Source: Klebsiella phage vB_KpM_FBKp34
Direction: 5' to 3' (one strand)
Sequence record: MW394390.1
Length of the DNA stretch: 64,000 nt
This document shows positions 2,701 through 26,352 of this stretch, one piece after another (the stretch's first letter is position 1; each line of letters opens with the position of its first letter). Under the pieces are notes generated by a model. That model had not been told where the DNA came from. It was given only the letters and a program-made list of their open reading frames with translations, and did no database searches. A program made the position numbers and the translations under genes.

Positions 2701-2895
2701 CTAATCCTTGCTCAATGTAATTTTAGTCTCAATAGACAAACCTTGTGTAGTATGCTCAATTTGCTCTAAGATAGCAATTGCTGAATCTAAACCACGCATT
2801 GCATTATGATATTTGTTTTCATAATAGGTTCCAGCTAAAGCATCTGAACGTTTTTTCTTAATATAATCAAGTGTCTCTTTGCTAACAATACTCAT
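2701..2895 (-). CDS. hypothetical protein
   Basis: 64-aa ORF; its start overlaps the stop of the neighbouring ORF (ATGA-type overlap). Confidence 0.4.
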   Translation of the reverse strand: MSIVSKETLDYIKKKRSDALAGTYYENKYHNAMRGLDSAIAILEQIEHTTQGLSIETKITLSKD

Positions 2896-3089
2896 TTTAT
2901 CTCCTTAACTTCTAATTTGACGGGCTTACCTTCAATATAAAAACAATCATATGAAGCTTTATCTCCTTGAGTAGTAGGCCAATGCAAAGCTACATAACAT
3001 TCTGCAGGAGTTTTATAAATTTGTGCTTGGTCTATTTCTTGCTTACCATTCAAAGTAGCAACTACAACCCAACCAGATAAAGTTATCAT
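2892..3089 (-). CDS. hypothetical protein
   Basis: 65-aa ORF overlapping its neighbour by 4 nt. Confidence 0.4.
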   Translation of the reverse strand: MITLSGWVVVATLNGKQEIDQAQIYKTPAECYVALHWPTTQGDKASYDCFYIEGKPVKLEVKEIK

Positions 3090-3328
3090 ACTTTAGCCAC
3101 CCAGCCTTTTTCAATTAAGATTTCAAAGATTGGCATATGTTCATTGTATTCTAAAATATCACCAACAGAATATGCACCTAAGCAGGATAAAGCAGCACCG
3201 TAATTTTCAAATGCACGGATATCAGTAATACGTAATTTCATTATTTCCCCTCATTCATAAGCTTTTGTTTAGCAAGGATTAAATCCATTGCTGTGTAAGG
3301 TTTATTCGTCCCATGATACTCTAAAGGT

Positions 3329-3550
3329 TTAATCATCCCATTTTTCCTTATAACTATAGCCAATTAATTCACCGTGTTGCCTAAGTGAAGAAATGTCAAT
3401 AGGGAAAATATTTCGTGTTTTAAGATTTTCCATATCAACTGTATATCTAAAAACTTGAATAACTACACAGTGAGCATACACTACGGAATCACCTAGCTTA
3501 TATGGTAGTTTTACAATCATTCCCGGACAAACAAAAGTATTTTGATTCAT
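3329..3550 (-). CDS. hypothetical protein
   Basis: 73-aa ORF. Confidence 0.4.
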   Translation of the reverse strand: MNQNTFVCPGMIVKLPYKLGDSVVYAHCVVIQVFRYTVDMENLKTRNIFPIDISSLRQHGELIGYSYKEKWDD

Positions 3551-3918
3551 TATTTTCTACTCTTCAACTTATGAACGATGTCTAAATCCCCTTTAGAAAG
3601 ATAATACACACCAAAACGAGTGTCAATATAAAATTGACGTTTAGTGTGGTCCATGCAAAGTTTTGCTTCTTGTTTGCATAAGACTTCTTTGTAAGGTGTA
3701 CCTTGACCACCATCCCTGAAGAAAGAAACAGTAAGGATTTGTTCATCATCTTCATTCATAAAGAAACTATCAATTTTGACAAATTTCCCAGAAGTAACAC
3801 CAGGGAATAATTCATTTAAACTATAACGCCCATCTGGGTTAATGGAATCAAACTCTTGTTTAATCAGATCTTTATCTTGTACAATCTGAACTTTAATTGG
3901 TACATAGTAACCATTCAT
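3550..3918 (-). CDS. hypothetical protein
   Basis: 122-aa ORF abutting downstream ORF. Confidence 0.5.
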   Translation of the reverse strand: MNGYYVPIKVQIVQDKDLIKQEFDSINPDGRYSLNELFPGVTSGKFVKIDSFFMNEDDEQILTVSFFRDGGQGTPYKEVLCKQEAKLCMDHTKRQFYIDTRFGVYYLSKGDLDIVHKLKSRK

Positions 3919-3945
3919 AATAAACTCCTGAAATTTAAATAAAAA

Positions 3946-4440
3946 TCAATCTTCGTGAATAGATTTTAATTTATCTAAGATTGTGTTGACGTCATCTAAA
4001 GTTTCAGCTTCTTGGAGACGACGAGTCAGAGTATTAATTAAACCCTTAATCACAGCAGGATTTGTTTTAGGTTTACGTTCTAAAAGTAGTTCCATTTCTT
4101 TTTGATGATTGCTTATCAATGTAGCTTGTTCTTGTTGCCAAGCTTCTTCATCCATAGCACCTTTACATACACAAGTATAACCGTAAACCTGATAATCACC
4201 TTCTTCAATATAAGGTTGTAAAGGTAAACCTTCATGACCACAATATGCACAAATTGGAGCACCTGAGCTAAAGACCATCTTAGTTGGTTGTGCGTTACAT
4301 TCAGGACTCCAATACATCCTATAACTACTGCCATTTTCACCATGAAAACTACCTACAAAACTTTTACGAAAACGATTGTAGGAACGTTCATCTGCATAAC
4401 TTGGGATAGCCATTTTAGTTTCCTTATAGACTATAAACAA
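3946..4440 (-). CDS. hypothetical zinc-finger protein
   Basis: 164 aa; Cys clusters CAYCGH...CVCKG. Confidence 0.45.
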   Translation of the reverse strand: MFIVYKETKMAIPSYADERSYNRFRKSFVGSFHGENGSSYRMYWSPECNAQPTKMVFSSGAPICAYCGHEGLPLQPYIEEGDYQVYGYTCVCKGAMDEEAWQQEQATLISNHQKEMELLLERKPKTNPAVIKGLINTLTRRLQEAETLDDVNTILDKLKSIHED

Positions 4441-4570
4441 CAGATTTAATATCTTGAACGTTTAACTCAGTCAAAGAGATAAAACGTTCAATAGCTAAAC
4501 AGATATTTGATGCTGAAATTCTCAATGAAGTGCCATTGAAAGCAGTAATGTTATACATAATCTTTTCTCC

Positions 4571-4858
4571 TCAGAATGCAAGTACACGTTTGATGTCTTT
4601 TGGTGCATTTTCGAACAACTCAATTACAAAGTCAAGCATTTTTATTAGATCATTCGTCACACTATACTCTTTGTAAGACCTCAAGCATGTTTTCTGTTCA
4701 CCAACTTGATGCAAAACCTTGATTGGTGCATCCAGGCGGATGTTACGGTCTTCGTCCTCCTCAAAAGAAGCTAACCACTTTTCATTGTCACCATGGACAG
4801 CAATTATGATCCCATAACCGTCAACAGTTTCTGAAATGTTTTTAGTTGCCTTTATCAT
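4571..4858 (-). CDS. hypothetical protein
   Basis: 95-aa ORF. Confidence 0.45.
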   Translation of the reverse strand: MIKATKNISETVDGYGIIIAVHGDNEKWLASFEEDEDRNIRLDAPIKVLHQVGEQKTCLRSYKEYSVTNDLIKMLDFVIELFENAPKDIKRVLAF

Positions 4859-5396
4859 TCAAGAGTTCCTCAATGTGACTAACACGATGTTCATAATAAT
4901 CCCCAAGAGAAAAGTAAGCTGCTGGGCTATGCAAAACATCCCATTCAAGCATCATCTCAATAGTTTTGTACATCTTAAGATACTTTTGCATTCTTGCAAA
5001 GTCTTTTTCTCGCAAACCTTTTAAACGACGAATATCTGTGTTGTGACGAAGATCAGCCAGCTTCACACGACACGTATCAGAAGAATACAAAATGCCTGAA
5101 AGGTACTCATTATGAGATTGACCTGCTTTCTTGGTTAAACGATTGATGCCATCCACTACCCGCTCTGAAAAACCGTAGGCAGCAAGTTCGATAAAAGTCA
5201 CATCACAATCTTCAACCAAATCATGACCGACAGCAATGCAGTTAAGTTCATCATCATCCGATTTGAGATAGTGCATAACCTTTAGTACATGCAAAATGTA
5301 AGGTCTTCCACCTTTATCAAATTGATCTTTATGGCCTTCTGCTGCTAACTTAATCATAAGGGAGAGTTGTTGTGCTGGAGTAAGTTCAAATTTCAT
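4842..5396 (-). CDS. HD-domain small alarmone hydrolase (SpoT/MESH1-like (p)ppGpp hydrolase)
   Basis: 184 aa; H...HD...ED motif (EGHKDQFDKGGRPYILHVLKV...GHDLVEDCDVTFIEL), FGERVVDGINRLTK and KLADLRHNTD match the Rel/SpoT hydrolase HD domain. Confidence 0.7.
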   Translation of the reverse strand: MKFELTPAQQLSLMIKLAAEGHKDQFDKGGRPYILHVLKVMHYLKSDDDELNCIAVGHDLVEDCDVTFIELAAYGFSERVVDGINRLTKKAGQSHNEYLSGILYSSDTCRVKLADLRHNTDIRRLKGLREKDFARMQKYLKMYKTIEMMLEWDVLHSPAAYFSLGDYYEHRVSHIEELLNDKGN

Positions 5397-5426
5397 TTGT
5401 ATGTCCTTCTTGGTTAAGATAACTCC

Positions 5427-5454
5427 ATCTTACTCTAAAAATATTTCATGTCAA
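5427..5454 (-). promoter_or_regulatory. sigma70-like promoter (TTGACA-N16-TAAGAT) for the minus-strand early operon
   Basis: reverse complement of 5427-5454 reads TTGACATGAAATATTTTTAGAGTAAGAT, directly upstream of the gene starting at 5396. Confidence 0.45.
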
Positions 5455-5457
5455 GGG

Positions 5458-5485
5458 TTGACTTTCTTTTTCGGTTTGATAAGAT
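5458..5485 (+). promoter_or_regulatory. sigma70-like promoter (TTGACT-N16-TAAGAT) for the plus-strand early/middle block
   Basis: TTGACT at 5458-5463 and TAAGAT at 5480-5485, followed by RBS GAGAGGAG and ATG at 5516; back-to-back with the minus-strand promoter. Confidence 0.45.
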
Positions 5486-5515
5486 TGTTGCATACCAAAC
5501 GAGAGGAGAAAAAAG

Positions 5516-5878
5516 ATGCCTATTTACCATGTAACTACTGAAGGTGATGATGAAGGTCGTAGCACTCGCGACCTGGGATATGTTGAAGCAAATAGCCCTG
5601 AACATGCTGTCAAATACTTGAAAAGTATTGGTATCCATGAATATTATGATTACTATGTGGACGTAGCACTGAATGTTGTTCGTAAAGCCGCCCCAGAAGA
5701 AACTCTGAATATGTGGGTAGCCGAACTATCCCTGCGGCCTTACAGCAAAGATTCTTACAAAGGTAAGGTAGTTGAAAACACAGAAGTACGTAAGCGTTGT
5801 CAACAAACTGTTCGAGAAGCAATGAAACGTGCAGGGCTTTCTTATGAAGACGTAGTTAACTTTGGTAAAGGAGAATAA
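5516..5878 (+). CDS. hypothetical protein
   Basis: 120-aa ORF with strong RBS; first gene of the plus-strand block. Confidence 0.55.
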   Translation: MPIYHVTTEGDDEGRSTRDLGYVEANSPEHAVKYLKSIGIHEYYDYYVDVALNVVRKAAPEETLNMWVAELSLRPYSKDSYKGKVVENTEVRKRCQQTVREAMKRAGLSYEDVVNFGKGE

Positions 5879-5880
5879 CA

Positions 5881-6252
5881 ATGTATAACCTCACCTGGAC
5901 GCAAGCCCAAGAAGCAATGCGTGAAGGTAAACGTGTAAAAAACTGTCACTTTACTGATGATGAGTGGTTTACAATGCAGGGTTGCTCTATTATAGATGAA
6001 GCTGGATATTCAATGGAAGGTTGGTATCGTGGTGAGCCTTGGCAAGATGTTGGTTGGACAGTTATTGCTGATGAAATAGCAGAACTTACAAAAGATGTAG
6101 AGTTTGTTCTGGACTTTACTAATCTTGAAAAGTATACTCTTAAAAGTATGATAGCTACAACAACTAAAGATAGATCTGATAGTGACTATGCCACTACAAA
6201 AATCTATAAAGGTAAAGGTCATAACAAGCTCCAGAAGAGGAAGAAGAAATGA
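5881..6252 (+). CDS. hypothetical protein (basic C-terminus)
   Basis: 123-aa ORF ending KLQKRKKK. Confidence 0.5.
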   Translation: MYNLTWTQAQEAMREGKRVKNCHFTDDEWFTMQGCSIIDEAGYSMEGWYRGEPWQDVGWTVIADEIAELTKDVEFVLDFTNLEKYTLKSMIATTTKDRSDSDYATTKIYKGKGHNKLQKRKKK

Positions 6253-6477
6253 AAATATTATATATTGAAGATGTTATGTGCGAGAAATGTTATGGTAGTA
6301 TTTTCTCTGGTGGGTGTATTTGTAAATGACTATCTATCAAAACATGTTTCGTGCTATCATGCGTAAGTATATCGGAAGTAAGGGGTATGCATCCCTTGAT
6401 GGTGGAAACACTTGGTCAGAAAGTGGAACACCAGAGGAGTTGATCAAACGTCTACCTTACTATGTGGAGATTAAATA

Positions 6478-6801
6478 ATGTTTTTATATTTTATTGGAGT
6501 TTTGGTTAGTGGTCTGCTATGGTTTGGTTTAATTAAGCTTCGACAGAAAGGTTTTGGTATAAAGATGCCAAAGTCTTTTGGTGAAGATTCCTTTTTCTTA
6601 GAACCTCTGGATAATAGAAGTGTGAACTATTCTTTAGTTATGATAGGGTTACTGCTATTCTCAATTCTATGGCCTATTGCTTGGGTCTTTCTTTTTTGGT
6701 TATATCTAATGGCATATATAATCGAGTTTGTTCAGTGGTTGTGGAAGAACTCAGTAGGAAATGAGAAATTTGTCAAGAAATTTTTTGGAGTAAGCAAGTG
6801 A
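6478..6801 (+). CDS. hypothetical membrane protein
   Basis: 107 aa with three hydrophobic helices. Confidence 0.5.
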   Translation: MFLYFIGVLVSGLLWFGLIKLRQKGFGIKMPKSFGEDSFFLEPLDNRSVNYSLVMIGLLLFSILWPIAWVFLFWLYLMAYIIEFVQWLWKNSVGNEKFVKKFFGVSK

Positions 6802-7007
6802 CTGACTGGGTTAAAATTAAAGCTACTAAAGAAATTCCTGTAGGAAAGTGGTTAGTCTACATGGAAGATGGAGAATATGGCTATTGTGAAGTAAACAAAA
6901 CTAAAAGTGGTACAATCGCTGTTATAAACGGTCGTTTTTACTTTGACATAGCTAGTGTAGTAGCATACACTTCATTTAACCACTATGAAGGAGGTAAAAA
7001 TGTTTAG
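6798..7007 (+). CDS. hypothetical protein
   Basis: 69-aa ORF, 4-nt overlap with its neighbour. Confidence 0.4.
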   Translation: MTDWVKIKATKEIPVGKWLVYMEDGEYGYCEVNKTKSGTIAVINGRFYFDIASVVAYTSFNHYEGGKNV

Positions 7008-7341
7008 TAACACAGTTCTGGATTCATTGGGAATCTTGCTTAATGCTGGGATCGAGGTCTCAATGCATTATGATCGTGAGAAAAAATTGTGGTATGCTGA
7101 CCTTAACACTGGGGCAAAAAGTCACATGCATTTGTATGATGATGGAAAAATCATCACATTAGAAAAACGTTATAATGAAAAAGATCAATTAAATTATGAG
7201 TTTGATAATTCGATGGAAGATATCTTGAACTTTTATTGTTGTAATTTTGTATCATGTATCAAAGGACGATCTTTTGCTAATGAAAATTGGGTTGCTTTTG
7301 CAAAAGAACGAGGTTATACTGCTGTCTTCGGAATTAATTAA
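6985..7341 (+). CDS. hypothetical protein
   Basis: 118-aa ORF. Confidence 0.45.
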   Translation: MKEVKMFSNTVLDSLGILLNAGIEVSMHYDREKKLWYADLNTGAKSHMHLYDDGKIITLEKRYNEKDQLNYEFDNSMEDILNFYCCNFVSCIKGRSFANENWVAFAKERGYTAVFGIN

Positions 7342-7350
7342 GGAGACCAA

Positions 7351-7587
7351 ATGTTAAATTCATTATATGTAAAAGACTATAATGACAATGTTTATACAAA
7401 AGTTGTAGCTGTCCTTCTGATCAATAATGTACCAACCTATATCGACGCCTACGGTGAAGGATATGAAGTGGGTGTTGCACATGTTATTGATATTGATCAC
7501 ATAGTTGATCCATATTTAGGTATTGAATGGCATGATAATGGGTTAACTTTTAAAACTTATGAACGGAAATATCCAAGGGAGCTTTAA
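7351..7587 (+). CDS. hypothetical protein
   Basis: 78-aa ORF with RBS AAGGAGA. Confidence 0.45.
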   Translation: MLNSLYVKDYNDNVYTKVVAVLLINNVPTYIDAYGEGYEVGVAHVIDIDHIVDPYLGIEWHDNGLTFKTYERKYPREL

Positions 7588-7589
7588 TA

Positions 7590-8288
7590 ATGCAAGTTAA
7601 AAATTTAAAACCTTTAATCACAGAAAGTTCACATGCAGGGGATGTTTCACAAAAGATTAGTCATCCTGCATATGGACTAATTTCTGTTACACGTCCGATG
7701 GGTGGCAGAAAAGAAATGTTTGGTTCTGATTTACGTCATGACAACACTGTGACAATCCGAATATCTAATGCTATTGAAGAACGTTCATTAGGACGTTCCT
7801 GGTACTATGAGAAAGGTCAAATCATTGAATTGGATATGACTGAAGCACAGTGGGCTAAGTTTGTCTCCTCACATGGTATGTCGGGAACACCGGTTACTTT
7901 ACGATATATCCGCGAAGAAGGTCAAATTCCTTGGATTGAATCTCAGAATAGCAAAGCAGATTACTCAGAAAAAGAATTTGAACGTGTTATTAAGAACAAT
8001 ATGCAGTACGCTCAAGATGCTTTAAATGAAGTTAAAGAACTCATTGCCAAGGGTAAAGCAGGTAAAAAGGATTTAGAGAATCTTGAAAAGGTTCTTTGGC
8101 GTATTGTTGAACGTTTCCCAGATAGTGCAGCGTTTGCAGTAAGAGCTTTCAAAGAAGAAACTGAAGAAATGGTAGAAGGTGCTAAAATTGAGATTGAAGC
8201 CTCTTTATCAGCTTTGGTGCAAAATACAGGTATTGAAGCTTTAGGTATTAAAAACTGGAATAAACTTGAGGATAAATCTGATGAGTAA
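7590..8288 (+). CDS. hypothetical protein
   Basis: 232-aa ORF. Confidence 0.5.
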   Translation: MQVKNLKPLITESSHAGDVSQKISHPAYGLISVTRPMGGRKEMFGSDLRHDNTVTIRISNAIEERSLGRSWYYEKGQIIELDMTEAQWAKFVSSHGMSGTPVTLRYIREEGQIPWIESQNSKADYSEKEFERVIKNNMQYAQDALNEVKELIAKGKAGKKDLENLEKVLWRIVERFPDSAAFAVRAFKEETEEMVEGAKIEIEASLSALVQNTGIEALGIKNWNKLEDKSDE

Positions 8289-8475
8289 GATTGTAATGGA
8301 AACCATCTTTGGTTCACATTTATATGGTCTGAATACCCCTAACAGTGATACAGATTACAAAGGAATTTTTATTCCTGATGCAAAAGATATTCTCTTAGGA
8401 AAAGCTCCTAAAACAATTCAATCATCTACAGGTGATAAACACTCAAAGAATACAAAAGATGACATTGATCGCTAA
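8266..8475 (+). CDS. nucleotidyltransferase, N-terminal part (GS-x9-DxD); ends at an in-frame TAA
   Basis: FGSHLYGLNTPNSDTDYKGIF is a classic pol-beta/MNT-type NTase signature; the next ORF continues in the same frame after a single TAA. Confidence 0.5.
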   Translation: MRINLMSKIVMETIFGSHLYGLNTPNSDTDYKGIFIPDAKDILLGKAPKTIQSSTGDKHSKNTKDDIDR

Positions 8476-9237
8476 ATGTTTAGTTTGAGTAAATTCATCA
8501 GTCTTGCTTGTGAAGGTGATACAGTAGCTATCGACATGATTCATGCTGATGATAGTAAGCTCGTAACCAATTCTGAAACGTGGCAATATATTCGTGACAA
8601 TCGTCACCGTTTTTATACTAAAAAGCTGACAGGACTTTTTGGTTATGTAAGGAAACAAGCATCTAAGTATGGAATTAAAGGCTCCAGGCTTGCAGCATTA
8701 CGTGAAGTTGTAGAATATATTAAGACAATAGATGATTCTAAAAAGGTTGGTGATTTCAAAGAATATTTTCCACTCAATGAGTTTGCATATTGGATCTTTG
8801 CTACGGATAAAAATGGTGTAAATCAAATCTTTTATGAAGTTCTTGGAAGAAAGTTTCAACAAACAGTCTCAGTAAAAGAAATGAAAACATCTTTATTTAA
8901 ACTGTGGGAAGAATATGGTGATAGAGCACGTTTGGCTGAGGCTAATCAAGGTGTGGATTGGAAAGCTCTGAGCCACGCTCTTCGTGGTGGATATCAACTT
9001 ATTAACATTTATAAGCATGGTGATCTTGTTTATCCTATGGAACAAAATCCCTTGATTTTATCTGTTAAGACTGGTAACATGCCTTTCAATGAGGTTCAGG
9101 AAGAACTTGAGAAGGTTGTACAGGAAGTTGAAATTTTAGCAGAAAACTCTCATTATCCTTCTTCAGTAGATAAGGAATTTTGGGAAGATTTTCTAGAAGA
9201 GGTTTATTCAGAACATATTCTTGGAGCATATTTGTGA
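8476..9237 (+). CDS. nucleotidyltransferase, C-terminal part (same frame as 8266-8475)
   Basis: starts with ATG right after the TAA; contains VAIDMIHADD (possible third acidic residue) and a long helical domain. Confidence 0.5.
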   Translation: MFSLSKFISLACEGDTVAIDMIHADDSKLVTNSETWQYIRDNRHRFYTKKLTGLFGYVRKQASKYGIKGSRLAALREVVEYIKTIDDSKKVGDFKEYFPLNEFAYWIFATDKNGVNQIFYEVLGRKFQQTVSVKEMKTSLFKLWEEYGDRARLAEANQGVDWKALSHALRGGYQLINIYKHGDLVYPMEQNPLILSVKTGNMPFNEVQEELEKVVQEVEILAENSHYPSSVDKEFWEDFLEEVYSEHILGAYL

Positions 9238-9251
9238 CTAATGAATACCAG

Positions 9252-9515
9252 ATGCCTTACAGAATTCATGAGATTGTCTTAGTAGATGGGATAGAAGCTA
9301 CTATCCGGGATATCTATAATAAGACTGTTAGAATCAAAGGAGAAGGCACTGAAGAAGACTCTTTCATGACAGTCTGGAGTTATCGTATTCATGAAAAGCC
9401 TTGGTGGGGCCAGGATGTTCTCCCACATAGAATTGAAAAACTTAACGGCGAACTGAGATTTGAGGAAAAGACCTATGCTAAACCCACAACAAAAGCATTT
9501 CTTCCTTACGAATGA
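9252..9515 (+). CDS. hypothetical protein
   Basis: ORF 9180-9515 trimmed to the internal ATG at 9252 to avoid overlap; a GTG at 9234 is an alternative start. Confidence 0.35.
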   Translation: MPYRIHEIVLVDGIEATIRDIYNKTVRIKGEGTEEDSFMTVWSYRIHEKPWWGQDVLPHRIEKLNGELRFEEKTYAKPTTKAFLPYE

Positions 9516-9699
9516 GGATTATAGTGATACTAAAACTTTTAACCTTGAGCAGTTACTATTAGAGCAATCTAATAATAACGTAGGTGAGATGTTTGTTTTG
9601 CTGGTTACAAATTTGTTTGAAAGAAAATTGTTGACAAAAGACGATCTGGCAGATATGATGGGCATCTCCCATTCCCAATTAGAAGAGGCACCTTGGTAA
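9460..9699 (+). CDS. hypothetical protein
   Basis: 79-aa ORF. Confidence 0.4.
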   Translation: MRKRPMLNPQQKHFFLTNEDYSDTKTFNLEQLLLEQSNNNVGEMFVLLVTNLFERKLLTKDDLADMMGISHSQLEEAPW

Positions 9700-10076
9700 T
9701 GAATAAAAATAAAAAACTAATTAAAGCTTTGAACACTTTTAGAAATGAACTTATTAGAGATTTGCATTCCTTTCGAAAATGTTCGGTGAACAGGAAAAAG
9801 ATGGATCAAAGTTATTTCAGTAAAACTTGTAATAAGATTAAACTTGAAATTAAAGAAGTTGATAAGTTAATCGAAGAAGCAAAGTTACAGAAAGAAAAGA
9901 ATTTCTTCGACTTGCGCCCGCAATGTTCAAGTATTGAAAGTGGACCAGAGCCAAGCATCACGATGCTTCTTGAAGACTACTATCGGGAATACTTTCCTGA
10001 AGATTATAAGAAGATGGCAAAAGATTATTTAGATAAACTTATGGAGATGAAGGATGCAGAACAAGTTAGTCTATAA
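9693..10076 (+). CDS. hypothetical protein
   Basis: 127-aa ORF, Lys-rich. Confidence 0.45.
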   Translation: MVMNKNKKLIKALNTFRNELIRDLHSFRKCSVNRKKMDQSYFSKTCNKIKLEIKEVDKLIEEAKLQKEKNFFDLRPQCSSIESGPEPSITMLLEDYYREYFPEDYKKMAKDYLDKLMEMKDAEQVSL

Positions 10077-10090
10077 AGTTGGAGATTTGA

Positions 10091-10753
10091 TTGAAACAAA
10101 AACTTGTACATAACTATGGCATTAATGATAGTGTAGACCCTGTCTCTATAAATAGATTTGAAGATGGTAAATGGAAGCAAATTTGGCTCTGTCCGATATA
10201 TAGCCGATGGAAAGACATTCTTAGAAGATGTTATAATTTAAAACAAAAAGATCCATATTATTTTGTCTATGAAGGTTGTACTGTAAGTGAAGAGTGGAAA
10301 TACTTTTCAAATTTTAAAGCTTGGGCCATATCTAAGGATTTTGATAATTTATGCATTGATAAGGATATATTAATTAAAGGTAATAAGCTTTATAGTAAAG
10401 AGACTTGCGTTATGGTTCCGAACTATATTAACTGCCTATTAACAGATAGTAGATCTGCAAGAGGACACCTCCCACTAGGGGTAAGTCTTAAAAAGAAGAA
10501 AAAGCCTCATCATAGGGATAGGTTCCAAGCTTATTGTCATGTATCTGGTAAGATTGTTTATCTAGGTTATCATAACTCACCAGACCTTGCTCATAAACAG
10601 TGGCAAGATTATAAAATTATTGCAATCAAGGAAAGCTTACAAAAATATAAAGAATCTGCACACTTTAATAAGGTTGTTGAAACTGCCTTACTTGATAGGA
10701 TCCAAGATATAAAAGAAGATATAAGTTTAAATAGAGAGACATTAAAATTATAG
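10091..10753 (+). CDS. homing-endonuclease-like protein (HNH_3-like region + AP2 DNA-binding domain)
   Basis: 220 aa; IDKDILIKGNKLYSKETCVMVPNYIN resembles an HNH_3 core; C-terminal RFQAYCHVSGKIVYLGYHNSPDLAHKQW matches the AP2 fold; paralog of 34973-35671. Confidence 0.55.
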   Translation: MKQKLVHNYGINDSVDPVSINRFEDGKWKQIWLCPIYSRWKDILRRCYNLKQKDPYYFVYEGCTVSEEWKYFSNFKAWAISKDFDNLCIDKDILIKGNKLYSKETCVMVPNYINCLLTDSRSARGHLPLGVSLKKKKKPHHRDRFQAYCHVSGKIVYLGYHNSPDLAHKQWQDYKIIAIKESLQKYKESAHFNKVVETALLDRIQDIKEDISLNRETLKL

Positions 10754-10761
10754 GGGGTAAT

Positions 10762-11277
10762 ATGTTGAAATATAAAGTGATGGATTTGTTATTGGCTGCA
10801 AAAAGTGGAGAAGTAAATGTTATTGCACAACAATGTAACTGTTTTAATGCACGTAAACGTGGGATTGCCCCACTTTTAGATAAAGCTTTCCCGGAAGTCG
10901 CTATTGCAGATGATTCAACTATTAAAGGAGACCCTAAAAAATTTGGAGATTTCTCATATGCCCATTCTCCATTGTATAATTTAAGTATTTATAATTTATA
11001 CGGACAGTGGGGTTGGTGGAAACGTGAGGATGGAAAACCAAATACAGATTTAGATAAGCTTGAATCTTCTTTCAAAGCTATGTCTAAACAGCTAATGCTT
11101 TTTGAAAATCAGGATCTTAAAATTGGACTTCCCAAACTTGGTGCAGGTCTTGGAGGAGCAGAGTGGTCTTCTGTTGAAGATATTATCAAAAAGACATTGT
11201 GTGAAGCCGGGTACAATGTTACCATCTATGTACTTGATGAAGCTGAAATCCCTGAAAATGCCACTGTGATCAAATAA
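10762..11277 (+). CDS. macro-domain protein (ADP-ribose binding/hydrolase)
   Basis: 171 aa; VIAQQCNCFNARKRGIAPLLDKAF (macro N-terminal Gly-rich motif) and IGLPKLGAGLGGAEW (second macro motif). Confidence 0.55.
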   Translation: MLKYKVMDLLLAAKSGEVNVIAQQCNCFNARKRGIAPLLDKAFPEVAIADDSTIKGDPKKFGDFSYAHSPLYNLSIYNLYGQWGWWKREDGKPNTDLDKLESSFKAMSKQLMLFENQDLKIGLPKLGAGLGGAEWSSVEDIIKKTLCEAGYNVTIYVLDEAEIPENATVIK

Positions 11278-11286
11278 GAGGTCTAT

Positions 11287-12216
11287 ATGAAGTTAGACGA
11301 ACAAGAACTCAAAAAACGTTTTGAATCTAAGAAAAAAGATGCCAGGAAGCGTGGTATTGATTTCAAATTAACCATTGAAGATATGAAAGCACTTTTCTTA
11401 CGTAATGAGGGTAAGTGTGATTATACTGGTGTTACCTTTGATGAGGATAAACATAAGATATCCATTGAACGTTTAGATGATAAACTCGGTTATGAACGAG
11501 GAAATGTTTGTTTAACTTCAGTAGCAGTAAATAGAATAAAAGATTATGCTCTTGACAAAACCGAAGTACAAGTAGTAAGGATCAATGAAACTTCTGAAGC
11601 AATTTTACGAGTAGTTCAAGAGAAAGTTACACCAGAGTATAAAAGGTTTTTATCTTATAAATACAACCATTTAATTAAATTTGAATCTAATGTTTATAAA
11701 AATTATTTTAAAGGTATTGACTATACAAATTTTTATGATAACTTGAATGGTGTCTTAACACAAAAAATTGAACTATCACGTAATGATCAAGGAGTCCTGA
11801 AGATGTCAGATAAACAGATTGCCCCAGATGTACGCATTGCCTCTTACTATTCTGATATGGCTAAACATGCCTCTGCGGAAAAGAAAGAGTTTACAGTTAG
11901 TTTTGCAGAGTTTAAAGCTAAGTTTTCAGGAACTAAGTGCAAATTAACAGGAGAGACAATTGAACTGTCTCAAAAAGTCTTTATCCTGTTAGACCAAACC
12001 CAGGGTTATACTAAAGATAACATAGTGCTTGTAGGTAAAGAGGTGGGTTCAAAGATGGTAGAAGCTAGTAAGCTCTTAGGAATGTCTATTCCAGAGATGG
12101 CTAAGAATCTTAATCCTTTTGTCAAGAACTATGTACCAAAAAAGAAACCTGTACCCAAAACCCCGCTTGTATCTTTAAGCTCTATTATGAAAAGTAAAAG
12201 TGGAGATAAGAAGTGA
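11287..12216 (+). CDS. hypothetical protein with tandem degenerate HNH-like repeats
   Basis: 309 aa; two similar segments (CDYTGVTFDED...ISIERLD...GNVCL...NRIK and CKLTGETIELS...ILLD...DNIVLVGKE) resemble HNH cores lacking the catalytic His. Confidence 0.3.
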   Translation: MKLDEQELKKRFESKKKDARKRGIDFKLTIEDMKALFLRNEGKCDYTGVTFDEDKHKISIERLDDKLGYERGNVCLTSVAVNRIKDYALDKTEVQVVRINETSEAILRVVQEKVTPEYKRFLSYKYNHLIKFESNVYKNYFKGIDYTNFYDNLNGVLTQKIELSRNDQGVLKMSDKQIAPDVRIASYYSDMAKHASAEKKEFTVSFAEFKAKFSGTKCKLTGETIELSQKVFILLDQTQGYTKDNIVLVGKEVGSKMVEASKLLGMSIPEMAKNLNPFVKNYVPKKKPVPKTPLVSLSSIMKSKSGDKK

Positions 12217-12395
12217 TTACAGTAATTAGTTATATTGTCTTAAGACACTTATTTCAAGAAGATTATCCTGGATGGTTGTTATTCCTTCCGGTGGTATTGG
12301 ACTTAACTTTAATTGATCGTATAGGTAAATAGCATATGTATAGAGGTTATGTTTTAAAAAATGAATTTGTTAATAAAATTTTAGGAGAAGAAATG

Positions 12396-12746
12396 AATAA
12401 AGAAATTAAAGTAGCAAAACCACGTTTTCACAAGAAGCGTAAACCAGTCCCAGTTCGTAAGAAAACTGACATTACCGTTTACTATTCCACAGGGGAAAAA
12501 TATACCATTAAAAATGTAAAAGCTTTATGTGTTAAAGGTGATACTATCTGCATTGGTTTGACTCCAGAGGTTAAAAATGGATATTTTGAGGGAAATTCTT
12601 TTGGTTTCACTACTGGAAATGTGGATTCTTTCCTTGTAAAAACACCAAAAGGAAGTTATACTCTTGATTCTGTTGGAGACAATGAGTTTATTCTGACTCA
12701 AGAAGGTTCTGTTATGACTCTGACGGAGCTAAATCAGACCTTTTAA
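12396..12746 (+). CDS. hypothetical protein
   Basis: ORF 12336-12746; the ATG at 12396 is preceded by AGGAGAAG. Confidence 0.45.
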   Translation, partial: NKEIKVAKPRFHKKRKPVPVRKKTDITVYYSTGEKYTIKNVKALCVKGDTICIGLTPEVKNGYFEGNSFGFTTGNVDSFLVKTPKGSYTLDSVGDNEFILTQEGSVMTLTELNQTF

Positions 12747-12758
12747 GGGAGGTATATT

Positions 12759-13196
12759 GTGAGTGTTGATCATAAAGTGTTTGTTTGTTGTTCAAAAGAT
12801 AAAGCCCTTGAAGTATATGGGGCTGTATTAACAGCACTGAGAGAATTTTATCGAAATAGGATTGCAAAGTTACGTTCTCAGTATAATTGCAATACTGTAC
12901 ATGAACTTCCAGAAGAAATTAAGTCAAAACTAAATAATGTTGACATAACCTCTTCTGATTTTAAGCACTTTTGGATCTATTTTAGTACAGAGGAAGAATC
13001 TAGGAACATCTTTATGTCACACTCGTGTTCTTCAGATTATAAAGAGATTTATGATGGGGAGAAGATTATCTTTAGTATAGGTCACTGGGGAGACCACCAA
13101 ATCTATATGGATATTATTAAAGATGCAATTAAAGACTTTGGTGACGTTTATGAAGATGTCAACGATTGCGATGATATTGATTTTGAAAAGGTATAA
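12759..13196 (+). CDS. hypothetical protein
   Basis: 145-aa ORF with RBS GGGAGG. Confidence 0.5.
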   Translation: MSVDHKVFVCCSKDKALEVYGAVLTALREFYRNRIAKLRSQYNCNTVHELPEEIKSKLNNVDITSSDFKHFWIYFSTEEESRNIFMSHSCSSDYKEIYDGEKIIFSIGHWGDHQIYMDIIKDAIKDFGDVYEDVNDCDDIDFEKV

Positions 13197-13223
13197 TTGT
13201 AGTACTAATTAGAGGAGTAATTT

Positions 13224-13661
13224 ATGAATCCACTGTTTGATAAAATTAATGATTGGTTTGAAGATCTTAAGGAATATGCTGAAAACTCTCCCAAAGAGTT
13301 TCTTAAAGATATGGAATATATTTTAGATTCTAGCTTCTTTGAAGAAGTTTATGAGAAACTTGATACTGTTCGAAGCTCTTTGGATGACCTCCGTGAAGAA
13401 GTTGAAGCTAAAGTAGCACCTGAGTTTCGTGTTGAAAAACTTCATAAGTTGATTAAGCTTGTTGAAATTACAGATTTGAAAGGGAAATATGTTCGAGATG
13501 GATTTGAAGAAGATCTTTTTCTGAACCACAAAGATAAGATCCGTCCTCCAGTCAATACCCACCAAGTTGGAGACGTATTCCAAATTGAAGAGGTCGAAGC
13601 ACTCCTCGGTTCAACTGTTCTTAATAAAGAAGCTGTGTTGAAACTTCTGGAAAAACTTTAA
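13224..13661 (+). CDS. hypothetical acidic protein
   Basis: 145-aa ORF with RBS GAGGAG; followed by a terminator. Confidence 0.5.
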   Translation: MNPLFDKINDWFEDLKEYAENSPKEFLKDMEYILDSSFFEEVYEKLDTVRSSLDDLREEVEAKVAPEFRVEKLHKLIKLVEITDLKGKYVRDGFEEDLFLNHKDKIRPPVNTHQVGDVFQIEEVEALLGSTVLNKEAVLKLLEKL

Positions 13662-13682
13662 GGGCGAAAGCCCTTTTATTCA
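13661..13682 (+). terminator. rho-independent terminator
   Basis: AGGGCGAAAGCCCT hairpin followed by TTTATT. Confidence 0.55.
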
Positions 13683-13698
13683 CTTAACAGGGGGTGAA

Positions 13699-14985
13699 AT
13701 GTCTGAGAGTAAAATGCTAATCATGTTTGATTCAAAGAATAATAACAATAAATTCTATGAAGCAACCTTAGATGACGTTGGAAATATTGCAGTTCGTTTT
13801 GGTCGGGTAGGTGGCGGGGTTCAAACTACCTCCTACTCTGGTGGTAAAAAGAAGTTTGACAGTCTTGTTGCATCTAAAATCAAGAAAGGTTATAAAGAAG
13901 CACAACTAGAAGCTGTCTCTGGTGAAACTGGGTTGACTCAAAAAGTTAACGTAGTAGACATTGCACTTAAGCAAATTGATTGTAAAGACGACACAAGTCG
14001 TAATCTTATTCAAGCAATTGCTAAAGCAAACATTCATAATATCACCAGTTCTACCAACATTAAATATGATGAAAAAGATGGTCTGTTTAAGTCTCCTTTA
14101 GGAGTTGTAAAGAAAGCTGCTGTGGAAGAAGCAATGATCCATCTTGGTAATATTGAATCCCTTTTGGATGAATATGAAAAGAGTGGTAAAGGTGAAGATG
14201 AGATCTTAACTTTAAATGATTCTTATTTTGTTCTTATTCCTAATAAAGTTGCAACTACACGTGATAAACGTCACTTGTTGTTTAGTCAGAAAAAGATTGA
14301 TGAACAACGTGAAATTTGTAAAGCACTTCTGGAAACCTTAGACCTTATTGAAGAACTTAAGAAGAATCAGGAAGATAAACCTAAAGAAGAAGTTGAAGTA
14401 GAAAAAATCTTTAATTTTGGTATCTCTCATGTTGAAGATTCTGCTACAATTGATCGTATTGTTAAGTACTACAATGAAAGTAAAAATGCCCAACACGGCG
14501 GTCGCATCATGGGTTCTAAGGTTAAAAATATCTATAAAATTAATCTTGGAAATCAACAAGCACCATTTGATAAAGCCATTACTAAGTATGGAAATGTTCA
14601 TGAACTGTGGCATGGAACACGTGTAGCTAATTTGTTATCTATTTTCTGTAAAGGTTTGATGATGCCTAAGCAATCACCAGGGCAGAAAGCTGGTGCAATG
14701 TTTGCAGACGGTATATATTTCGCTAACCAAAGTTCTAAGAGCATCAACTATTGTGACGGCGGGTACTGGACAGGCGGTTCTGGTAGTGGTAAGGTATACA
14801 TGTTCCTAGCTTCAGTGGCTGTCGGAAATGCTTATACACCTAGAGGTCCAACGAGTCAATTGCCTCCGAAAGGTTATCATTCATATTGGGCGAAGGCTGG
14901 TTACTCTGGAGTCAGAAATGATGAAATCATTGTTTTTGATCTGAGTCAGATTCGTTTAGATTACTTACTTGAAATTGAATATTAA
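13699..14985 (+). CDS. WGR-domain poly(ADP-ribose) polymerase-like ADP-ribosyltransferase (H-Y-E class)
   Basis: 428 aa; N-terminal FYEATL...AVRFGRVGGGVQ (WGR-like); catalytic region HELWHGTRVANLLSIFCKGL...MFADGIYFANQSSKSINYC...NDEIIVFDLSQIRLDYLL is near-collinear with the PARP1 catalytic core (H-G-S, Y-F-A, catalytic Glu at 14923-14925). Confidence 0.8.
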   Translation: MSESKMLIMFDSKNNNNKFYEATLDDVGNIAVRFGRVGGGVQTTSYSGGKKKFDSLVASKIKKGYKEAQLEAVSGETGLTQKVNVVDIALKQIDCKDDTSRNLIQAIAKANIHNITSSTNIKYDEKDGLFKSPLGVVKKAAVEEAMIHLGNIESLLDEYEKSGKGEDEILTLNDSYFVLIPNKVATTRDKRHLLFSQKKIDEQREICKALLETLDLIEELKKNQEDKPKEEVEVEKIFNFGISHVEDSATIDRIVKYYNESKNAQHGGRIMGSKVKNIYKINLGNQQAPFDKAITKYGNVHELWHGTRVANLLSIFCKGLMMPKQSPGQKAGAMFADGIYFANQSSKSINYCDGGYWTGGSGSGKVYMFLASVAVGNAYTPRGPTSQLPPKGYHSYWAKAGYSGVRNDEIIVFDLSQIRLDYLLEIEY

Positions 14986-15974: not shown

Positions 15975-18900
15975 ATGCACCACCCATACAAAATTATAAA
16001 ACGTGATGGACGCACTGAACAATTTGATGAACGTAAAGTTTACAATGCAGTATATCAAGCAGCACTAGCTAACTCTTCATTATCAATCACAGCAGAACAT
16101 GTTGCTGATCAAATCACAGAACACGTTATTAAAAATCTCAAAGAGAATAAGTCAGTCTCAAATGTTCAAAAAATGATTGAAGATTTCCTTATGTCTAATC
16201 CAAAGACATATGATATAGCCAGAACCTATATTGAGTACAGACATGATAGAGATAAAATTCGTGAAGGAAATGGGAAACTTTATAATGACATCTCTGGCTT
16301 CTTAGAACAAACAGCAGAAGAATTTACTCGTGAGAACGCTAATAAACCCAGCAATGTTGTAAACACGCACAGAGACCTCTTAGCAGGGATTTTAAGTAAG
16401 CATGTAGCATTAACTCAAATACTACCTAAAAACCTCTCAGAATGGCATACAAGCGGTTTTGGGCATATTCATGACCTAGATTATCTAATCAGTCCTCTTA
16501 CAAATTGTCTAGGAAGAGAAACAGCTTTTATCACAAAAGAAGGAACAAAAACGTTTTTCGATTTTAATAGTGGAGATGATGTCCTAGCCTTAACCCATAC
16601 AGGTACTTTTAAGAAGGCAAAAGTTTACAATTATGGGTACGGACTTTTAAATGAAATTACATTAAAACGTGGACGTCTAAGAAAAACAATACGTGCAACA
16701 GCTAATCACAGGTGGTTATTAGAGGATGGCACAGTCACTACTAACCTTAAGGTAGGTGATAAACTACTGAAAACTCCTACAACATATAATAGAGATTGGG
16801 CCACATTGAGCAACTCTGAAAAAAGAGCTTGGTGTTTTGGTTTTGGATATGCAGATGGTGTGAGTAGGATTACACAATGGGGTAATTTTTTTACTATACC
16901 CCTTATTGGTAAAAAACAGGATTATCAAGAATTATTTGAAGATGCTGGATTTAGAGTTACTAAAACAAAGTTGTACTCTGTAGTACATTTAGGTAAATTA
17001 GAAAAATTTTTACCTACAACATTAACCCATACAGAAAATGAGATTTTTTGTTTTGTTGATGGGCTTATAGCAGCAGACGGACATAAAAAATATAGACCTA
17101 AGCTAAATAAAAATATTCCAGCGTCGATTCAGATGACTGGAGAAGAAATAAATGACTTTATACAAACTTGGTTTGAACCTGCTGGGTATTATTTGGGGGC
17201 AACGTTAGATCTTTCCTGTCAAGAAACAAATTATGGTAAAAGAAACGGAAAAACTATAGAATATAAATTAAACCCAGAACAGAACCATATGGCATGGACT
17301 GTCACTGAAATTATCAACACAGGCAAAGAAGAGGAGGTGTGGTGTTTGGAGGTGGAAGAAGATGCAAGTTTTATTCTTTCTAATGGAGTAGTCACAGGTA
17401 ACTGTTGTCTTGTTAACTATCAAGATATGTTAGAAAATGGTTTCCATATTGGAAATGCTTTCATTGAAAAACCTAAATCAATTGGTGTTGCTACTACAGT
17501 GTTGACACAAATTATTCAGGCGGTGGCCTCTAGTCAATATGGTGGACAAACTTGCGCACATATTGATACAGGATTAAAACAGTATGTAGAGTCAACATAC
17601 TATAGGAATGAAGGTTTATTTAATCAATATAATATCTCAGAATATAAAGTAGATGCTTTTAGGAAAACAGAACAAGATGTCTATGATGCAATGCAAACCC
17701 TTATTTATCAGGTTAATACATTAATGAGTGTAAATGGTCAGTCTCCATTCATCACTATTAGTCTTGGTTTAGATACTTCAGAATTTGGTAGAATGATCAC
17801 TCGTAACTATCTAAAAATTCATAAAGAAGGTCTGGGTAAAGATAAAGTAACACCTGTGTTCCCGAAAGTGATTTTCTTTCTTGAAGAAGGTGTAAACATG
17901 CACCCTGATGATCCTAATTATGACCTGAAACAACTAGCAATGGAGTGTTGTGCAGAAAGAATTTATCCAGATTTTATTTCAGTTCCTAGAAATAAACTAG
18001 TTACAAAATCTTCAAAAGGTCATGTTACTAGCATGGGCTGTCGTAGCTTCCTTTCTTATTTTGCTACAGAACAAGGTGAGAAATATGATGGCAGATTTAA
18101 TCTTGGGGTAGTGTCTTTAAACCTACCGATGATTGCCAAGGATTGTACCACCAACGGAAAACTTTTTCTTGAAGAACTTTATAAGCATATGCAAACAGCA
18201 TATGAAGCACATATGCTGAGGATTAATCGCCTTAAGGGAACTAAAGCAAAACAAAATCCTGTGATGTTCGTTGAAGGAGCATTAGCTAGACTCGATCCTG
18301 AAGAAACTATTGACAAACTTTTTTACAAAGGTTATGCTTCAGCAAGTTTTGGTTATGTAGGGCTTTACGAATGTGTAAAAATCCTTTATCCAGAGGTAAC
18401 TTTAGACGAGTACAAGGATTTTGGACAAAAAATTCTTAAATTTATGTCTAATATGGCAGAAGATTATAAAAAGAAAACAGGTGTAGGTTTTGGTCTTTAT
18501 GGAACCCCAGCAGAATCACTTTGCTATAAGTTTGCTAATAAAATTAATGAGAAATTCCCAGGAACTATCGAGAAAGATTACTTGACCAACTCTTTCCATG
18601 TTCCAGTAGACCAAGAAGTAGACCCTTTTACTAAATGGAATGTTGAATCAGGGTTTGACTTTATCAGTTCAGGTGGTAATATAGGTTATGTTGAGACACC
18701 AAATCTGAAACACAACATGCAAGGACTGGAAGCATTAATCAACTATGGATATGAAAATATTCATTACTTTGGGATTAATCAACCTGTTGATAAATGTCTG
18801 AAGTGTGGCTTTCATGGAGAGTTTAAAGCAACAGCAGAAGGCTTTGAATGTCCTGATTGTGGCAATACTGAGGAAGGAACGATCAACGTGATTCGGAGAG

Positions 18901-18992
18901 TCTCAGGTTACTTATCTGCACCTAACAGCAGACCTTTTAATAAGGGTAAGATGCAGGAAGTTGTTCAACGTGTAAAACATACAAATTTATGA
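15975..18992 (+). CDS. nrdD: anaerobic ribonucleoside-triphosphate reductase NrdD carrying an intein
   Basis: 1005 aa; C-terminal glycyl-radical motif RRVSGYLSAP and Zn-ribbon CLKCG...CPDCG; ATP-cone-like N-terminus; 299-aa in-frame insertion with intein and LAGLIDADG signatures. Confidence 0.8.
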   Translation: MHHPYKIIKRDGRTEQFDERKVYNAVYQAALANSSLSITAEHVADQITEHVIKNLKENKSVSNVQKMIEDFLMSNPKTYDIARTYIEYRHDRDKIREGNGKLYNDISGFLEQTAEEFTRENANKPSNVVNTHRDLLAGILSKHVALTQILPKNLSEWHTSGFGHIHDLDYLISPLTNCLGRETAFITKEGTKTFFDFNSGDDVLALTHTGTFKKAKVYNYGYGLLNEITLKRGRLRKTIRATANHRWLLEDGTVTTNLKVGDKLLKTPTTYNRDWATLSNSEKRAWCFGFGYADGVSRITQWGNFFTIPLIGKKQDYQELFEDAGFRVTKTKLYSVVHLGKLEKFLPTTLTHTENEIFCFVDGLIAADGHKKYRPKLNKNIPASIQMTGEEINDFIQTWFEPAGYYLGATLDLSCQETNYGKRNGKTIEYKLNPEQNHMAWTVTEIINTGKEEEVWCLEVEEDASFILSNGVVTGNCCLVNYQDMLENGFHIGNAFIEKPKSIGVATTVLTQIIQAVASSQYGGQTCAHIDTGLKQYVESTYYRNEGLFNQYNISEYKVDAFRKTEQDVYDAMQTLIYQVNTLMSVNGQSPFITISLGLDTSEFGRMITRNYLKIHKEGLGKDKVTPVFPKVIFFLEEGVNMHPDDPNYDLKQLAMECCAERIYPDFISVPRNKLVTKSSKGHVTSMGCRSFLSYFATEQGEKYDGRFNLGVVSLNLPMIAKDCTTNGKLFLEELYKHMQTAYEAHMLRINRLKGTKAKQNPVMFVEGALARLDPEETIDKLFYKGYASASFGYVGLYECVKILYPEVTLDEYKDFGQKILKFMSNMAEDYKKKTGVGFGLYGTPAESLCYKFANKINEKFPGTIEKDYLTNSFHVPVDQEVDPFTKWNVESGFDFISSGGNIGYVETPNLKHNMQGLEALINYGYENIHYFGINQPVDKCLKCGFHGEFKATAEGFECPDCGNTEEGTINVIRRVSGYLSAPNSRPFNKGKMQEVVQRVKHTNL
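16506..17402 (+). mobile_element. intein with double-motif LAGLIDADG homing endonuclease inside nrdD
   Basis: begins SPLTN|CLGRETAFITKEG (block A-like, Cys1) and ends FILSNGVVTGN|CCLVNY (block G-like, terminal Asn, +1 Cys); internal FGFGYADGVS and FVDGLIAADGH LAGLIDADG motifs. Confidence 0.7.
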
Positions 18993-22630: not shown

Positions 22631-22634
22631 GAAT

Positions 22635-22657
22635 AGCCCCGAAAGGGGCTTTAGTTT
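22635..22657 (+). terminator. rho-independent terminator
   Basis: AGCCCCGAAAGGGGCT hairpin followed by TTAGTTT. Confidence 0.55.
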
Positions 22658-22674
22658 AAAGAGGAAACTTTAAC

Positions 22675-23037: not shown

Positions 23038-23146
23038 TGTTGACTTTTGCTAAGACAAGCTTTATAGTTTGTCTTGTTGAAAGAAACAAACCAGTAAGGA
23101 GTAAAAATGTTTGCTGAAGAAGATATTCATTCAGAGATAGAATGGC

Positions 23147-24308: not shown

Positions 24309-24328
24309 TTTAGAGGAGAAACACTAAT

Positions 24329-26334: not shown

Positions 26335-26352
26335 GATCATTTTAAACTGTTA

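Follow-up and report, generated by a model that had tools for sequence, protein, structure and literature searches.

The DNA examined here (the window) is a stretch of 64,000 nucleotides from the Klebsiella phage vB_KpM_FBKp34 (FBKp34; sequence record MW394390.1), and our subject is a small gene within it that encodes a macro-domain protein. An initial annotation, made from the DNA letters, had described an open reading frame (ORF) with two macro motifs, 2.4 kb upstream of a PARP gene, and had offered two roles for its product: partner of the PARP in a self-contained ADP-ribosylation cycle, or counter-defence against host immunity based on NAD and ADP-ribose. The gene itself is real: it opens with an ATG behind a strong ribosome-binding site (Table 1), the strand opposite is full of stops, and both motifs are found in the translation, CNCFNARKRGIAPLL at residues 25–39 and GLPKLGAGLGGAEW at residues 122–135. 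The PARP is likewise borne out, with its domains present and its H-Y-E triad intact (aligned to H862, Y896 and E988 of human PARP1), and 2,422 nt separate the stop of the macro gene from the PARP start. Both genes share a strand with the early/replication block (NrdD, primase-helicase, DNA polymerase). The FBKp34 record holds the macro protein as a ‘putative phosphatase’ (100% identity), and in Klebsiella phage KP13-16 (Stephanstirmvirinae), to which the DNA of the region is ~96% identical, the counterpart is annotated as a ‘hypothetical protein’.

The macro-domain call proved correct by fold, profile and family matches. The protein matches phrog_335, labelled ‘phosphatase’, at E=5.6e-44. The Pfam Macro model (PF01661) gives 15.1 bits, under its gathering cut-off of 22, with model positions 4–118 of 118 covered, and a precomputed PF01661 match is present on some relatives. 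Searched against the PDB, the sequence finds BT1257 (3e-7), SCO6735 (8e-5) and DarG (3e-3), and a profile of the family finds BT1257 (3e-22), SCO6735 (6e-18), TARG1 (5e-14), DarG (3e-9) and Poa1p (6e-9); all 15 profile matches belong to the ALC1-like class, and the PDB relatives score 35–83 bits against the family hidden Markov model (HMM). An AlphaFold2 model built with 48 relatives reached a predicted local distance difference test (pLDDT) of 95.1 and a predicted TM-score (pTM) of 0.90. In Foldseek, TARG1, BT1257, DarG, Poa1p and SCO6735 take ranks 1–17 with probability 1.0, the ALC1 class giving query-normalised TM-scores of 0.69–0.78 among 192 PDB matches at E<=0.001 overall. The modelled three-layer α/β fold, together with a Gly-rich diphosphate-binding loop conserved among relatives (G127-A-G-L-G-G-A-E-W135), places the protein in the macro-domain superfamily; neither structure nor HMM comparison put it outside the macro fold, the outcome that the initial annotation had named as speaking against its call. 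Because the top Foldseek matches and all PDB profile matches come from that class, the protein belongs with the ALC1/TARG1-like macro domains and not with the MacroD, PARG or viral nsP3 macros, and its matches and residues assign it to the phage Adpp/phrog_335 family as a Gln-type member.

The key residues are Q23, N26, R31-K32-R33, Q82, G84, K87/R88/K92 and the G127–W135 loop. The position of the catalytic Lys is occupied by Gln82, invariant in 49 sequences, and N26 and the Gly-rich loop are kept as strictly in all 49 relatives. G84 is present, as is a long basic mobile loop with K87, R88 and K92, and the dyad Lys84/Asp125 of TARG1 aligns with Q82/G131, so that the TARG1 dyad is absent. Gln stands at residue 23 in the macro protein and in the five cluster representatives nearest to it (P0002–P0006), and the same six proteins have R31-K32-R33 (R-K-S in P0006) as against M-G-S in the others. 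Because this Q23/RKR variant is conserved across proteins 62–100% identical to the macro protein, it is likely to be functional; its substrate preference may be shifted and, given the change from His to Gln at residue 23, it may not share the chemistry of the Adpp enzyme introduced below, which has been tested. Structures of a Poa1p H23A mutant exist. The mismatch at the Val/Ile25 position of SCO6735, which is Q24 here and Q, C or G in relatives, carries little weight, the role proposed for that residue being exerted through the backbone.

The idea that the Q23/RKR allele is a PARP-specific version of the protein was rejected. PARP-bearing relatives (05F01, L020 and L022; L with a number is our handle for a related genome, contig or locus) carry His-type alleles, and alleles of the Q-type are found in two contigs, L019 and L014, with no PARP in the available sequence; this covers 6 kb downstream in L019 and ends 0.6 kb downstream in L014. 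On the L014 contig, where T7-like markers are found and the 10 kb upstream contain no PARP, a cREC_REC gene (cyclic-phosphate processing receiver) comes 4 nt after the Q23-type gene (P0006).

By sequence, the closest characterised relative of the macro protein is Adpp (KNV71_gp137 of Vibrio phage Gary), the ADP-ribose (ADPR)-1''-phosphate phosphatase of NARP1-AP, described in 2026 by the Sorek laboratory in a preprint (bioRxiv 10.64898/2026.01.28.702374), and the GenBank label ‘phosphatase’ is therefore reasonable. According to the same preprint, aRES, defence proteins with a RES domain, generate ADPR-1''-phosphate, which NARP1 cannot use, and purified Gary Adpp converts ADPR-1''-phosphate (ADPR-1P) to ADPR and is required for NARP1 to overcome aRES. 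The Vibrio phages Noelle and VPG01 have the same three-gene NARP1/macro operon as Gary, Noelle gp169 being 97.5% identical to Gary Adpp. Their NARP1-embedded macros are 37–39% identical to the window macro over the full length (146–167 aligned columns) and score 139–152 bits against the family HMM, vs 20 bits for AdfM of PhiKZ. Adpp and the window macro have in common the assignment to phrog_335, a single domain of ~160 amino acids (aa), the motifs CNCF..G.GIAPL, N-[LV]-Y-G-Q, G-LP-[KL]-[IL]-G-[AC]-G-L-.-G-.-.-W and DVTI[YF], and a host phage lineage that also encodes Adps and Namat. They differ in that the window macro lies outside a NARP1 operon, near a PARP, and has Q23 for the conserved His and a loop of R-K-R for M-G-R.

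NARP1 (Adps plus Namat) is present, as judged from homology, in the FBKp34/KP13-16 lineage. Adps was identified in KP13-16, where a Prs-like gene 39.5% identical to Noelle Adps adjoins a gene of 561 aa whose product matches solved Namat structures of SPbetaL1 (9W5X/9W5W) at 1e-123, and genuine Nampt at 1e-52 or weaker. In FBKp34 it is Namat that was identified (QQV91749.1), in the same 90%-identity cluster as the KP13-16 Namat. The window corresponds to KP13-16 positions ~95–26 kb, and NARP1 lies outside it. In the KP13-16 record the two genes stand at the end of a run that includes PnuC and NadR and is followed by a tRNA array (Table 1).

The family extends far beyond this lineage. Among 50,697 phage records, a homologue of the window macro occurs in 1,324, one of Adpp (Noelle gp169) in 2,762, one of the KP13-16 Namat in 1,624 and one of the window PARP in 8. 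The macro-bearing groups include Stephanstirmvirinae, Vequintavirinae, Pakpunavirus, T4-like phages and phages of 156–160 kb infecting Salmonella and Klebsiella; KaOmega and KNP2 have both macro and Namat. In PARP-less ESCO8, PRTase_3 and then the macro gene stand near NrdD and TelA, and in PARP-less KNP2 the macro gene is followed by two small ORFs and an RNA ligase gene, in both cases in the same early block. Because PARP-less relatives keep the macro gene in that block, gene content indicates that it predates the PARP in this group and is independent of it. As to the check proposed at the outset, co-occurrence of the two genes in related phages, the pair is present in all lineage contigs examined that reach the PARP position, and macro homologues occur in 1,324–2,762 records against eight for PARP. 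Tk.4 of T4-like phages is also a member of the family (Table 1); T4 is reported to withstand DarTG2 even when both adfA and adfN are missing (PMC11825919), and Tk.4 would be an obvious candidate in that resistance.

We tentatively favour, at somewhat under an even chance, the reading that the macro protein is an Adpp-family hydrolase which frees ADP-ribose from 1''-substituted forms, so that NARP1 can rebuild NAD+ under RES-type defence. Host aRES proteins would phosphorolyse NAD+ and thereby make ADPR-1''-phosphate; the small, early-expressed macro hydrolase would remove the group at the 1'' position of ADP-ribose, chiefly the phosphate of this compound; and Adps and Namat, the phage's NARP1 enzymes, whose genes lie in another part of the genome, would turn the released ADP-ribose into NAD+. 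The substrate of the macro protein and a link to NARP1 acting in trans are what we infer in this scheme. Counter-defence, which the initial annotation had given as its alternative, is the better supported of the two roles because no characterised relative is closer than Adpp and because the lineage has NARP1. Counted on the same side are the wide distribution of the family as against the PARP, relatives such as KaOmega and KNP2 with both macro and Namat, Gad2-family genes near the macro gene in the related loci L006, L016, L020 and L022, the cloning of aRES systems from K. pneumoniae, E. coli and Enterobacter (bioRxiv 10.64898/2026.01.28.702374), and locus L058, where two types of macro occur and the Gln-type accompanies NARP1.

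Several observations weigh against this reading. The macro gene is not part of the NARP1 operon: the two are ~70 kb apart in KP13-16, and instead of lying within two genes of Adps and Namat the macro gene is flanked by HNH endonuclease-like genes. Macro genes are found in 15% of 859 NARP1 operons (bioRxiv 10.64898/2026.01.28.702374), and the family is far commoner than NARP1-associated macros, so its members may have several substrates; a single member has been assayed, on one substrate, in a preprint. At position 23, His is present in 45 of the 49 relatives and in Adpp, SCO6735, BT1257, TARG1 and Poa1p, and His23 of Poa1p is described as key to catalysis (PMC12846349). Finally, in all members of the lineage examined whose sequence extends to the PARP position, the macro and PARP genes share a strand and lie within 2.4–5 kb of each other; these are the window, L001 (KP13-16), L002 (05F01), L006, L008, L020, L021 and L022 (L007 stops short).

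Table 1. Positions of the genes and features discussed, in the window and in related sequences.
Feature	Sequence	Position	Strand	Remarks
ORF linked to Gad2	Window	752–2104	-	450 aa
HNH gene, upstream	Window	10091–10753	+	220 aa; free-standing, homing-endonuclease-like; immediately 5' of macro gene; also in KP13-16
Divergent cassette	Window	10092–~11218	+	Upstream HNH gene and roughly first 85% of macro gene
Ribosome-binding site (Shine-Dalgarno)	Window	10753–10757	+	GGGGG; 4 nt before ATG at 10762
Macro-domain protein gene	Window	10762–11277	+	171 aa; ORF with ATG start
HNH gene, downstream	Window	11287–12216	+	309 aa; endonuclease-like; immediately 3' of macro gene
PARP homologue	Window	13699–14985	+	428 aa; WGR, PARP_reg and PARP catalytic domains (Pfam)
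NrdD	Window	15975–18992		1,005 aa; 703–707 aa in KP13-16, L008, L020, L022
NrdD insertion, probable intein	Window	~16510–17400		~300 aa; absent from relatives
Ter-type stress cluster	Window	21653–31869		TerC, vWA-TerF-like, two TerD, TelA, further on ComF-like PRTase_3
NAD-related run	KP13-16 (L011)	2850–13791		SIR2-family protein, PnuC, NadR, Adps-like Prs, Namat, then tRNA array
Adps/Namat	KP13-16	11.1–13.8 kb		
Macro gene	KP13-16	83.7–84.2 kb		
TARG1-type macro	L090	9530–9967		PARP at 10001–11197
TARG1-type macro	L041	4217–4657		PARP at 4673–5881
NARP1, macro and PARP genes	L083	5580–11170		Adps, Gln-type macro, ~1.3 kb interval, Namat, PARP
NARP1, macro and PARP genes	L058	4221–11188		Adps, Namat, Gln-type macro, further on TARG1-type macro directly before PARP
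Q23-type macro and cREC_REC genes	L014	10001–10858		
tk.4	JS10 (EU863409)	54346–54600		
tk.4	nt-1 (NC_021529)	222227–222478		

This last observation bears on the role that the initial annotation had put first. The macro protein would then be an eraser and recycler for the phage's own PARP, removing Glu/Asp-linked terminal ADP-ribose from proteins, so as to limit or reset the modification, and returning ADP-ribose to the pool, a possibility that we regard as unlikely, though it survives best among the rivals. Rare in deposited phage genomes (8/50,697), the PARP is a common find in IMG/VR, with at least 110 matches confirmed; a scan of the IMG/VR viral contigs with a single PARP sequence gave no matches, and it was a PARP alignment used as query that gave loci. 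In 80 such phage PARP loci, searched for macros within 10 kb, an ALC1-class macro ORF was found in 56. The macro ORFs number 59, all of them on the PARP strand and 55 within 1.9 kb. Forty-four of the 59 are TARG1-type, with human TARG1 as best PDB match (8e-25); these form 5 clusters at 60% identity and keep the Lys of the dyad in 44/44 and the Asp in 31/44. The other 15 are Gln-type. In 39 of the 80 loci the macro ORF ends 13–45 nt before the PARP start, and 38 of these ORFs are TARG1-type. A predicted writer–eraser pairing is thus real and recurrent in phage PARP loci, normally with a TARG1-type gene. Among the loci L041–L102 there is a conserved two-gene unit, a TARG1-type macro and then a WGR-PARP on the same strand, and we found no description of such a TARG1-type macro/PARP gene pair in the literature examined. 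L083 and L058, in which Adps, Namat, macro and PARP genes stand together, suggest phage ‘NAD+/ADP-ribose islands’ that link PARP output to NAD+ rebuilding.

Some of these data also favour an eraser role for the window gene. Gln-type macros take the place beside the PARP in L040 (27 nt upstream, in the slot that is TARG1-type in related loci), in L050 (504 nt downstream) and in the separate PARP cluster of L034 (0.5–1.9 kb downstream in 9/10 loci), and the Gln-type SCO6735 removes PARP1 E988Q automodification in vitro (PMC9411070). No TARG1-type macro was found in the window lineage, and a single macro in the whole KP13-16 genome, and the window macro is therefore the only candidate eraser. On the other side stand the more than 1,300 PARP-less phage records with a member of the macro family, and the PARP-less ESCO8 and KNP2, which show that proximity to the PARP can be inherited context; the Q-type macros of L019 and L014 likewise come without a PARP in the available sequence. 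The PARPs most closely related to that of the window do not have the partner either: no ALC1-class macro lies within 10–20 kb in L023–L033, whose PARPs are the closest, or in XacN1, Xoo-sp13 and RAS14, and the jumbo Xanthomonas and Stenotrophomonas phages with the most similar deposited PARPs have none within 20 kb. Near macro-less PARPs, 150 neighbouring ORFs included no PARG or ARH and gave 2 Pfam Macro matches. The self-contained cycle of the initial annotation gains indirect support from the adjacent macros at 56/80 loci, and is not shown for the window gene.

Comparison within the lineage adds to the evidence against such a partnership. The genes between macro and PARP vary among its members, and between phages that mostly agree at 94–100% in the flanking genes, the macro alleles have 49–99% identity. 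Relative to the window, L020 has 99% identity in the PARP, 98% in the downstream HNH protein and 99% in YqeY, and 49% in the macro protein; for L022 these values are 99, 99, 100 and 49%, and for L008 98, 95, 97 and 68%. Macro alleles of 49%, 68% and 99% identity thus accompany PARPs that are 94–99% identical, and there is no co-evolution of the two. The divergence is confined to a cassette (Table 1) in which DNA identity to L022 is 0–68%, as against 95–100% on both sides, and the comparison with L008 also diverges. The position of the upstream HNH gene is empty in the otherwise near-identical contigs L008, L020 and L022, and the downstream HNH gene is 95–99% conserved in the closest relatives KP13-16, L008, L020 and L022. 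Since the divergent tract begins where the homing-endonuclease gene is inserted and stops within the macro gene, it looks like co-conversion linked to the homing endonuclease, and this swapped cassette argues against tight co-adaptation of macro and PARP. An arms race as the only cause of macro divergence is weakened by the same coincidence with the insertion and by the end of the tract within the gene.

Other features of the window may be of interest in their own right. The product of the minus-strand ORF near its start is 91% identical to that of an L022 gene with a precomputed PF26128 match (Gad2, anti-Gabija); a Pfam scan of the window ORF gave no Gad2 match, and the link to Gad2 rests on the identity to L022. 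NrdD is enlarged by an insertion with a weak Intein_splicing match, under the Pfam cut-off, and this is probably an intein. Downstream lies a Ter-type stress cluster with a PRTase_3 gene, and PRTase_3 stands next to or near the macro gene in 05F01, L006 and ESCO8.

Less probable than a PARP eraser, in our view, is a role in DNA repair resembling that of an orphan antitoxin, in which the macro protein would, like PhiKZ AdfM and the bacterial DarG and SCO6735, remove the ADP-ribose that host DarT2 places on thymidine in phage single-stranded DNA. DarG was the first lead from the searches, being the sole PADLOC match (E=4e-8) and the best NCBIfam match (2e-6) as well as a PDB match, and the residues on which thymidine-ADPr removal depends in SCO6735 all have counterparts: N26 for Asn27, Q82 for Gln85 and G84 for Gly87; the basic loop has K87, R88 and K92, and R31-K32-R33 stands at the site of the DNA-contacting Lys34. 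Every tested ALC1-class enzyme reverses thymidine ADP-ribosylation (PMC9411070), and there are phage precedents in AdfM (PMC13309987) and AdfN (PMC11825919). The DNA-acting AdfM has no His at the residue-23 position, so that Q23 is not obviously harmful to this activity. The lead to a DarG/AdfM-type macro was nevertheless demoted, with AdfM at 22% identity (pairwise E=0.41, and the low family HMM score given above) and Adpp much closer. The catalytic Lys and the DarT-binding domain of DarG are both lacking, the NCBIfam score of 27.3 is far below the cut-off (250), the substrate of the closest relative with a tested activity is a small molecule, and we saw no sign here of DarTG2 in the Klebsiella hosts of FBKp34.

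A further scenario joins the preferred reading to the PARP: the Q23/R31-K32-R33 variant of Adpp could have taken over the role of PARP eraser and feed NARP1, giving a closed loop from NAD+ through protein ADP-ribosylation and ADP-ribose back to NAD+; we would give this only a small chance, a little below that of DNA repair. Least likely is the clean-up of other 1''/2''-substituted ADP-ribose made by phage enzymes (O-acetyl-ADP-ribose from the phage sirtuin, ADPR-1''-P from RNA repair of the Tpt1/KptA type) or non-catalytic ADP-ribose binding: KP13-16 encodes a SIR2-family protein, an RlaP-type RNA-repair nucleotidyltransferase gene lies 1.5–2 kb upstream of the macro gene in the lineage, the macro gene is beside an RNA ligase gene in KNP2 and SSBI34 and before the cREC_REC gene in L014, and Poa1p and TARG1 act on both ADPR-1''P and O-acetyl-ADP-ribose, but no RNA ligase or KptA is found among the window ORFs scanned, the sirtuin gene is ~80 kb away, and catalysis rather than mere binding is indicated by N26, Q82 and the Gly-rich loop, which none of the 49 relatives has lost.

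NAD+ and ADP-ribose are central to the conflict between phages and bacteria, and the macro family, present in ~3–5% of deposited phage genomes, is among the commonest accessory enzymes of large lytic phages, although records still label it ‘hypothetical’ or ‘phosphatase’. Its placement with Adpp would predict resistance of therapy-relevant Klebsiella phages to NAD+ depletion of the RES type. The TARG1–PARP pair, the NARP1–macro–PARP chains and the swapped cassette point to complete ADP-ribosylation circuits encoded by phages and to unusually fast evolution of the macro slot.

Beside Adpp, the known macro proteins offer four points of comparison. The best relatives of solved structure by sequence are SCO6735 and BT1257. 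Like them, the window macro has Gln where the catalytic Lys would stand, a counterpart of Asn27, a mobile loop that is long and basic, and the Gly-rich loop for the diphosphate, so that the features of this subclass (Gln, Asn27/Gly87 and basic loop) are all present. The two are bacterial chromosomal proteins, 21–25% identical to the window macro; His24 and Val25 of SCO6735 are Q23 and Q24 here, and its known activity is on thymidine-ADPr DNA and Glu-ADPr protein, the Gln, Asn27, Gly87 and basic loop being needed for removal of thymidine-ADPr from DNA, and PARP1 being de-modified as well (PMC9411070). TARG1 (OARD1) is the top Foldseek match, with a TM-score of 0.71 (query-normalised) or 0.86 (TARG1-normalised), and agrees in class, in size and in the C-terminal motif G-x-G-L-x-x-x-x-W...[IV]T[IV]Y; the window protein differs from it in the missing dyad and in a mobile loop 6 residues longer, and from the phage TARG1-type genes, which abut the PARP, in its distance from that gene. 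DarG and AdfM share the ALC1-like class and the conserved Asn (N26 here, N23 in AdfM), and AdfM (PhiKZ gp104), a DarG2-like phage macro that removes DarT2 marks from DNA (PMC13309987), is likewise a stand-alone phage macro used or proposed against ADP-ribose-based defence. Both have P-T-K where the window macro has Y-G-Q, its Gln standing at the position of Lys80 in Thermus aquaticus DarG; it is a single domain with no adjacent darT, and its context is not that of a nuclear-shell phage. Poa1p, likely the source of the GenBank label ‘phosphatase’, shares the class and the equivalents of Asn26 and Gly33/34, and differs in an identity of 15–18% and in the changes of His23 to Gln and Ser30 to Ala. 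Set among these proteins, the gene is a further member of a known family, unusual in its Q23/RKR active site and in its cassette-like exchange.

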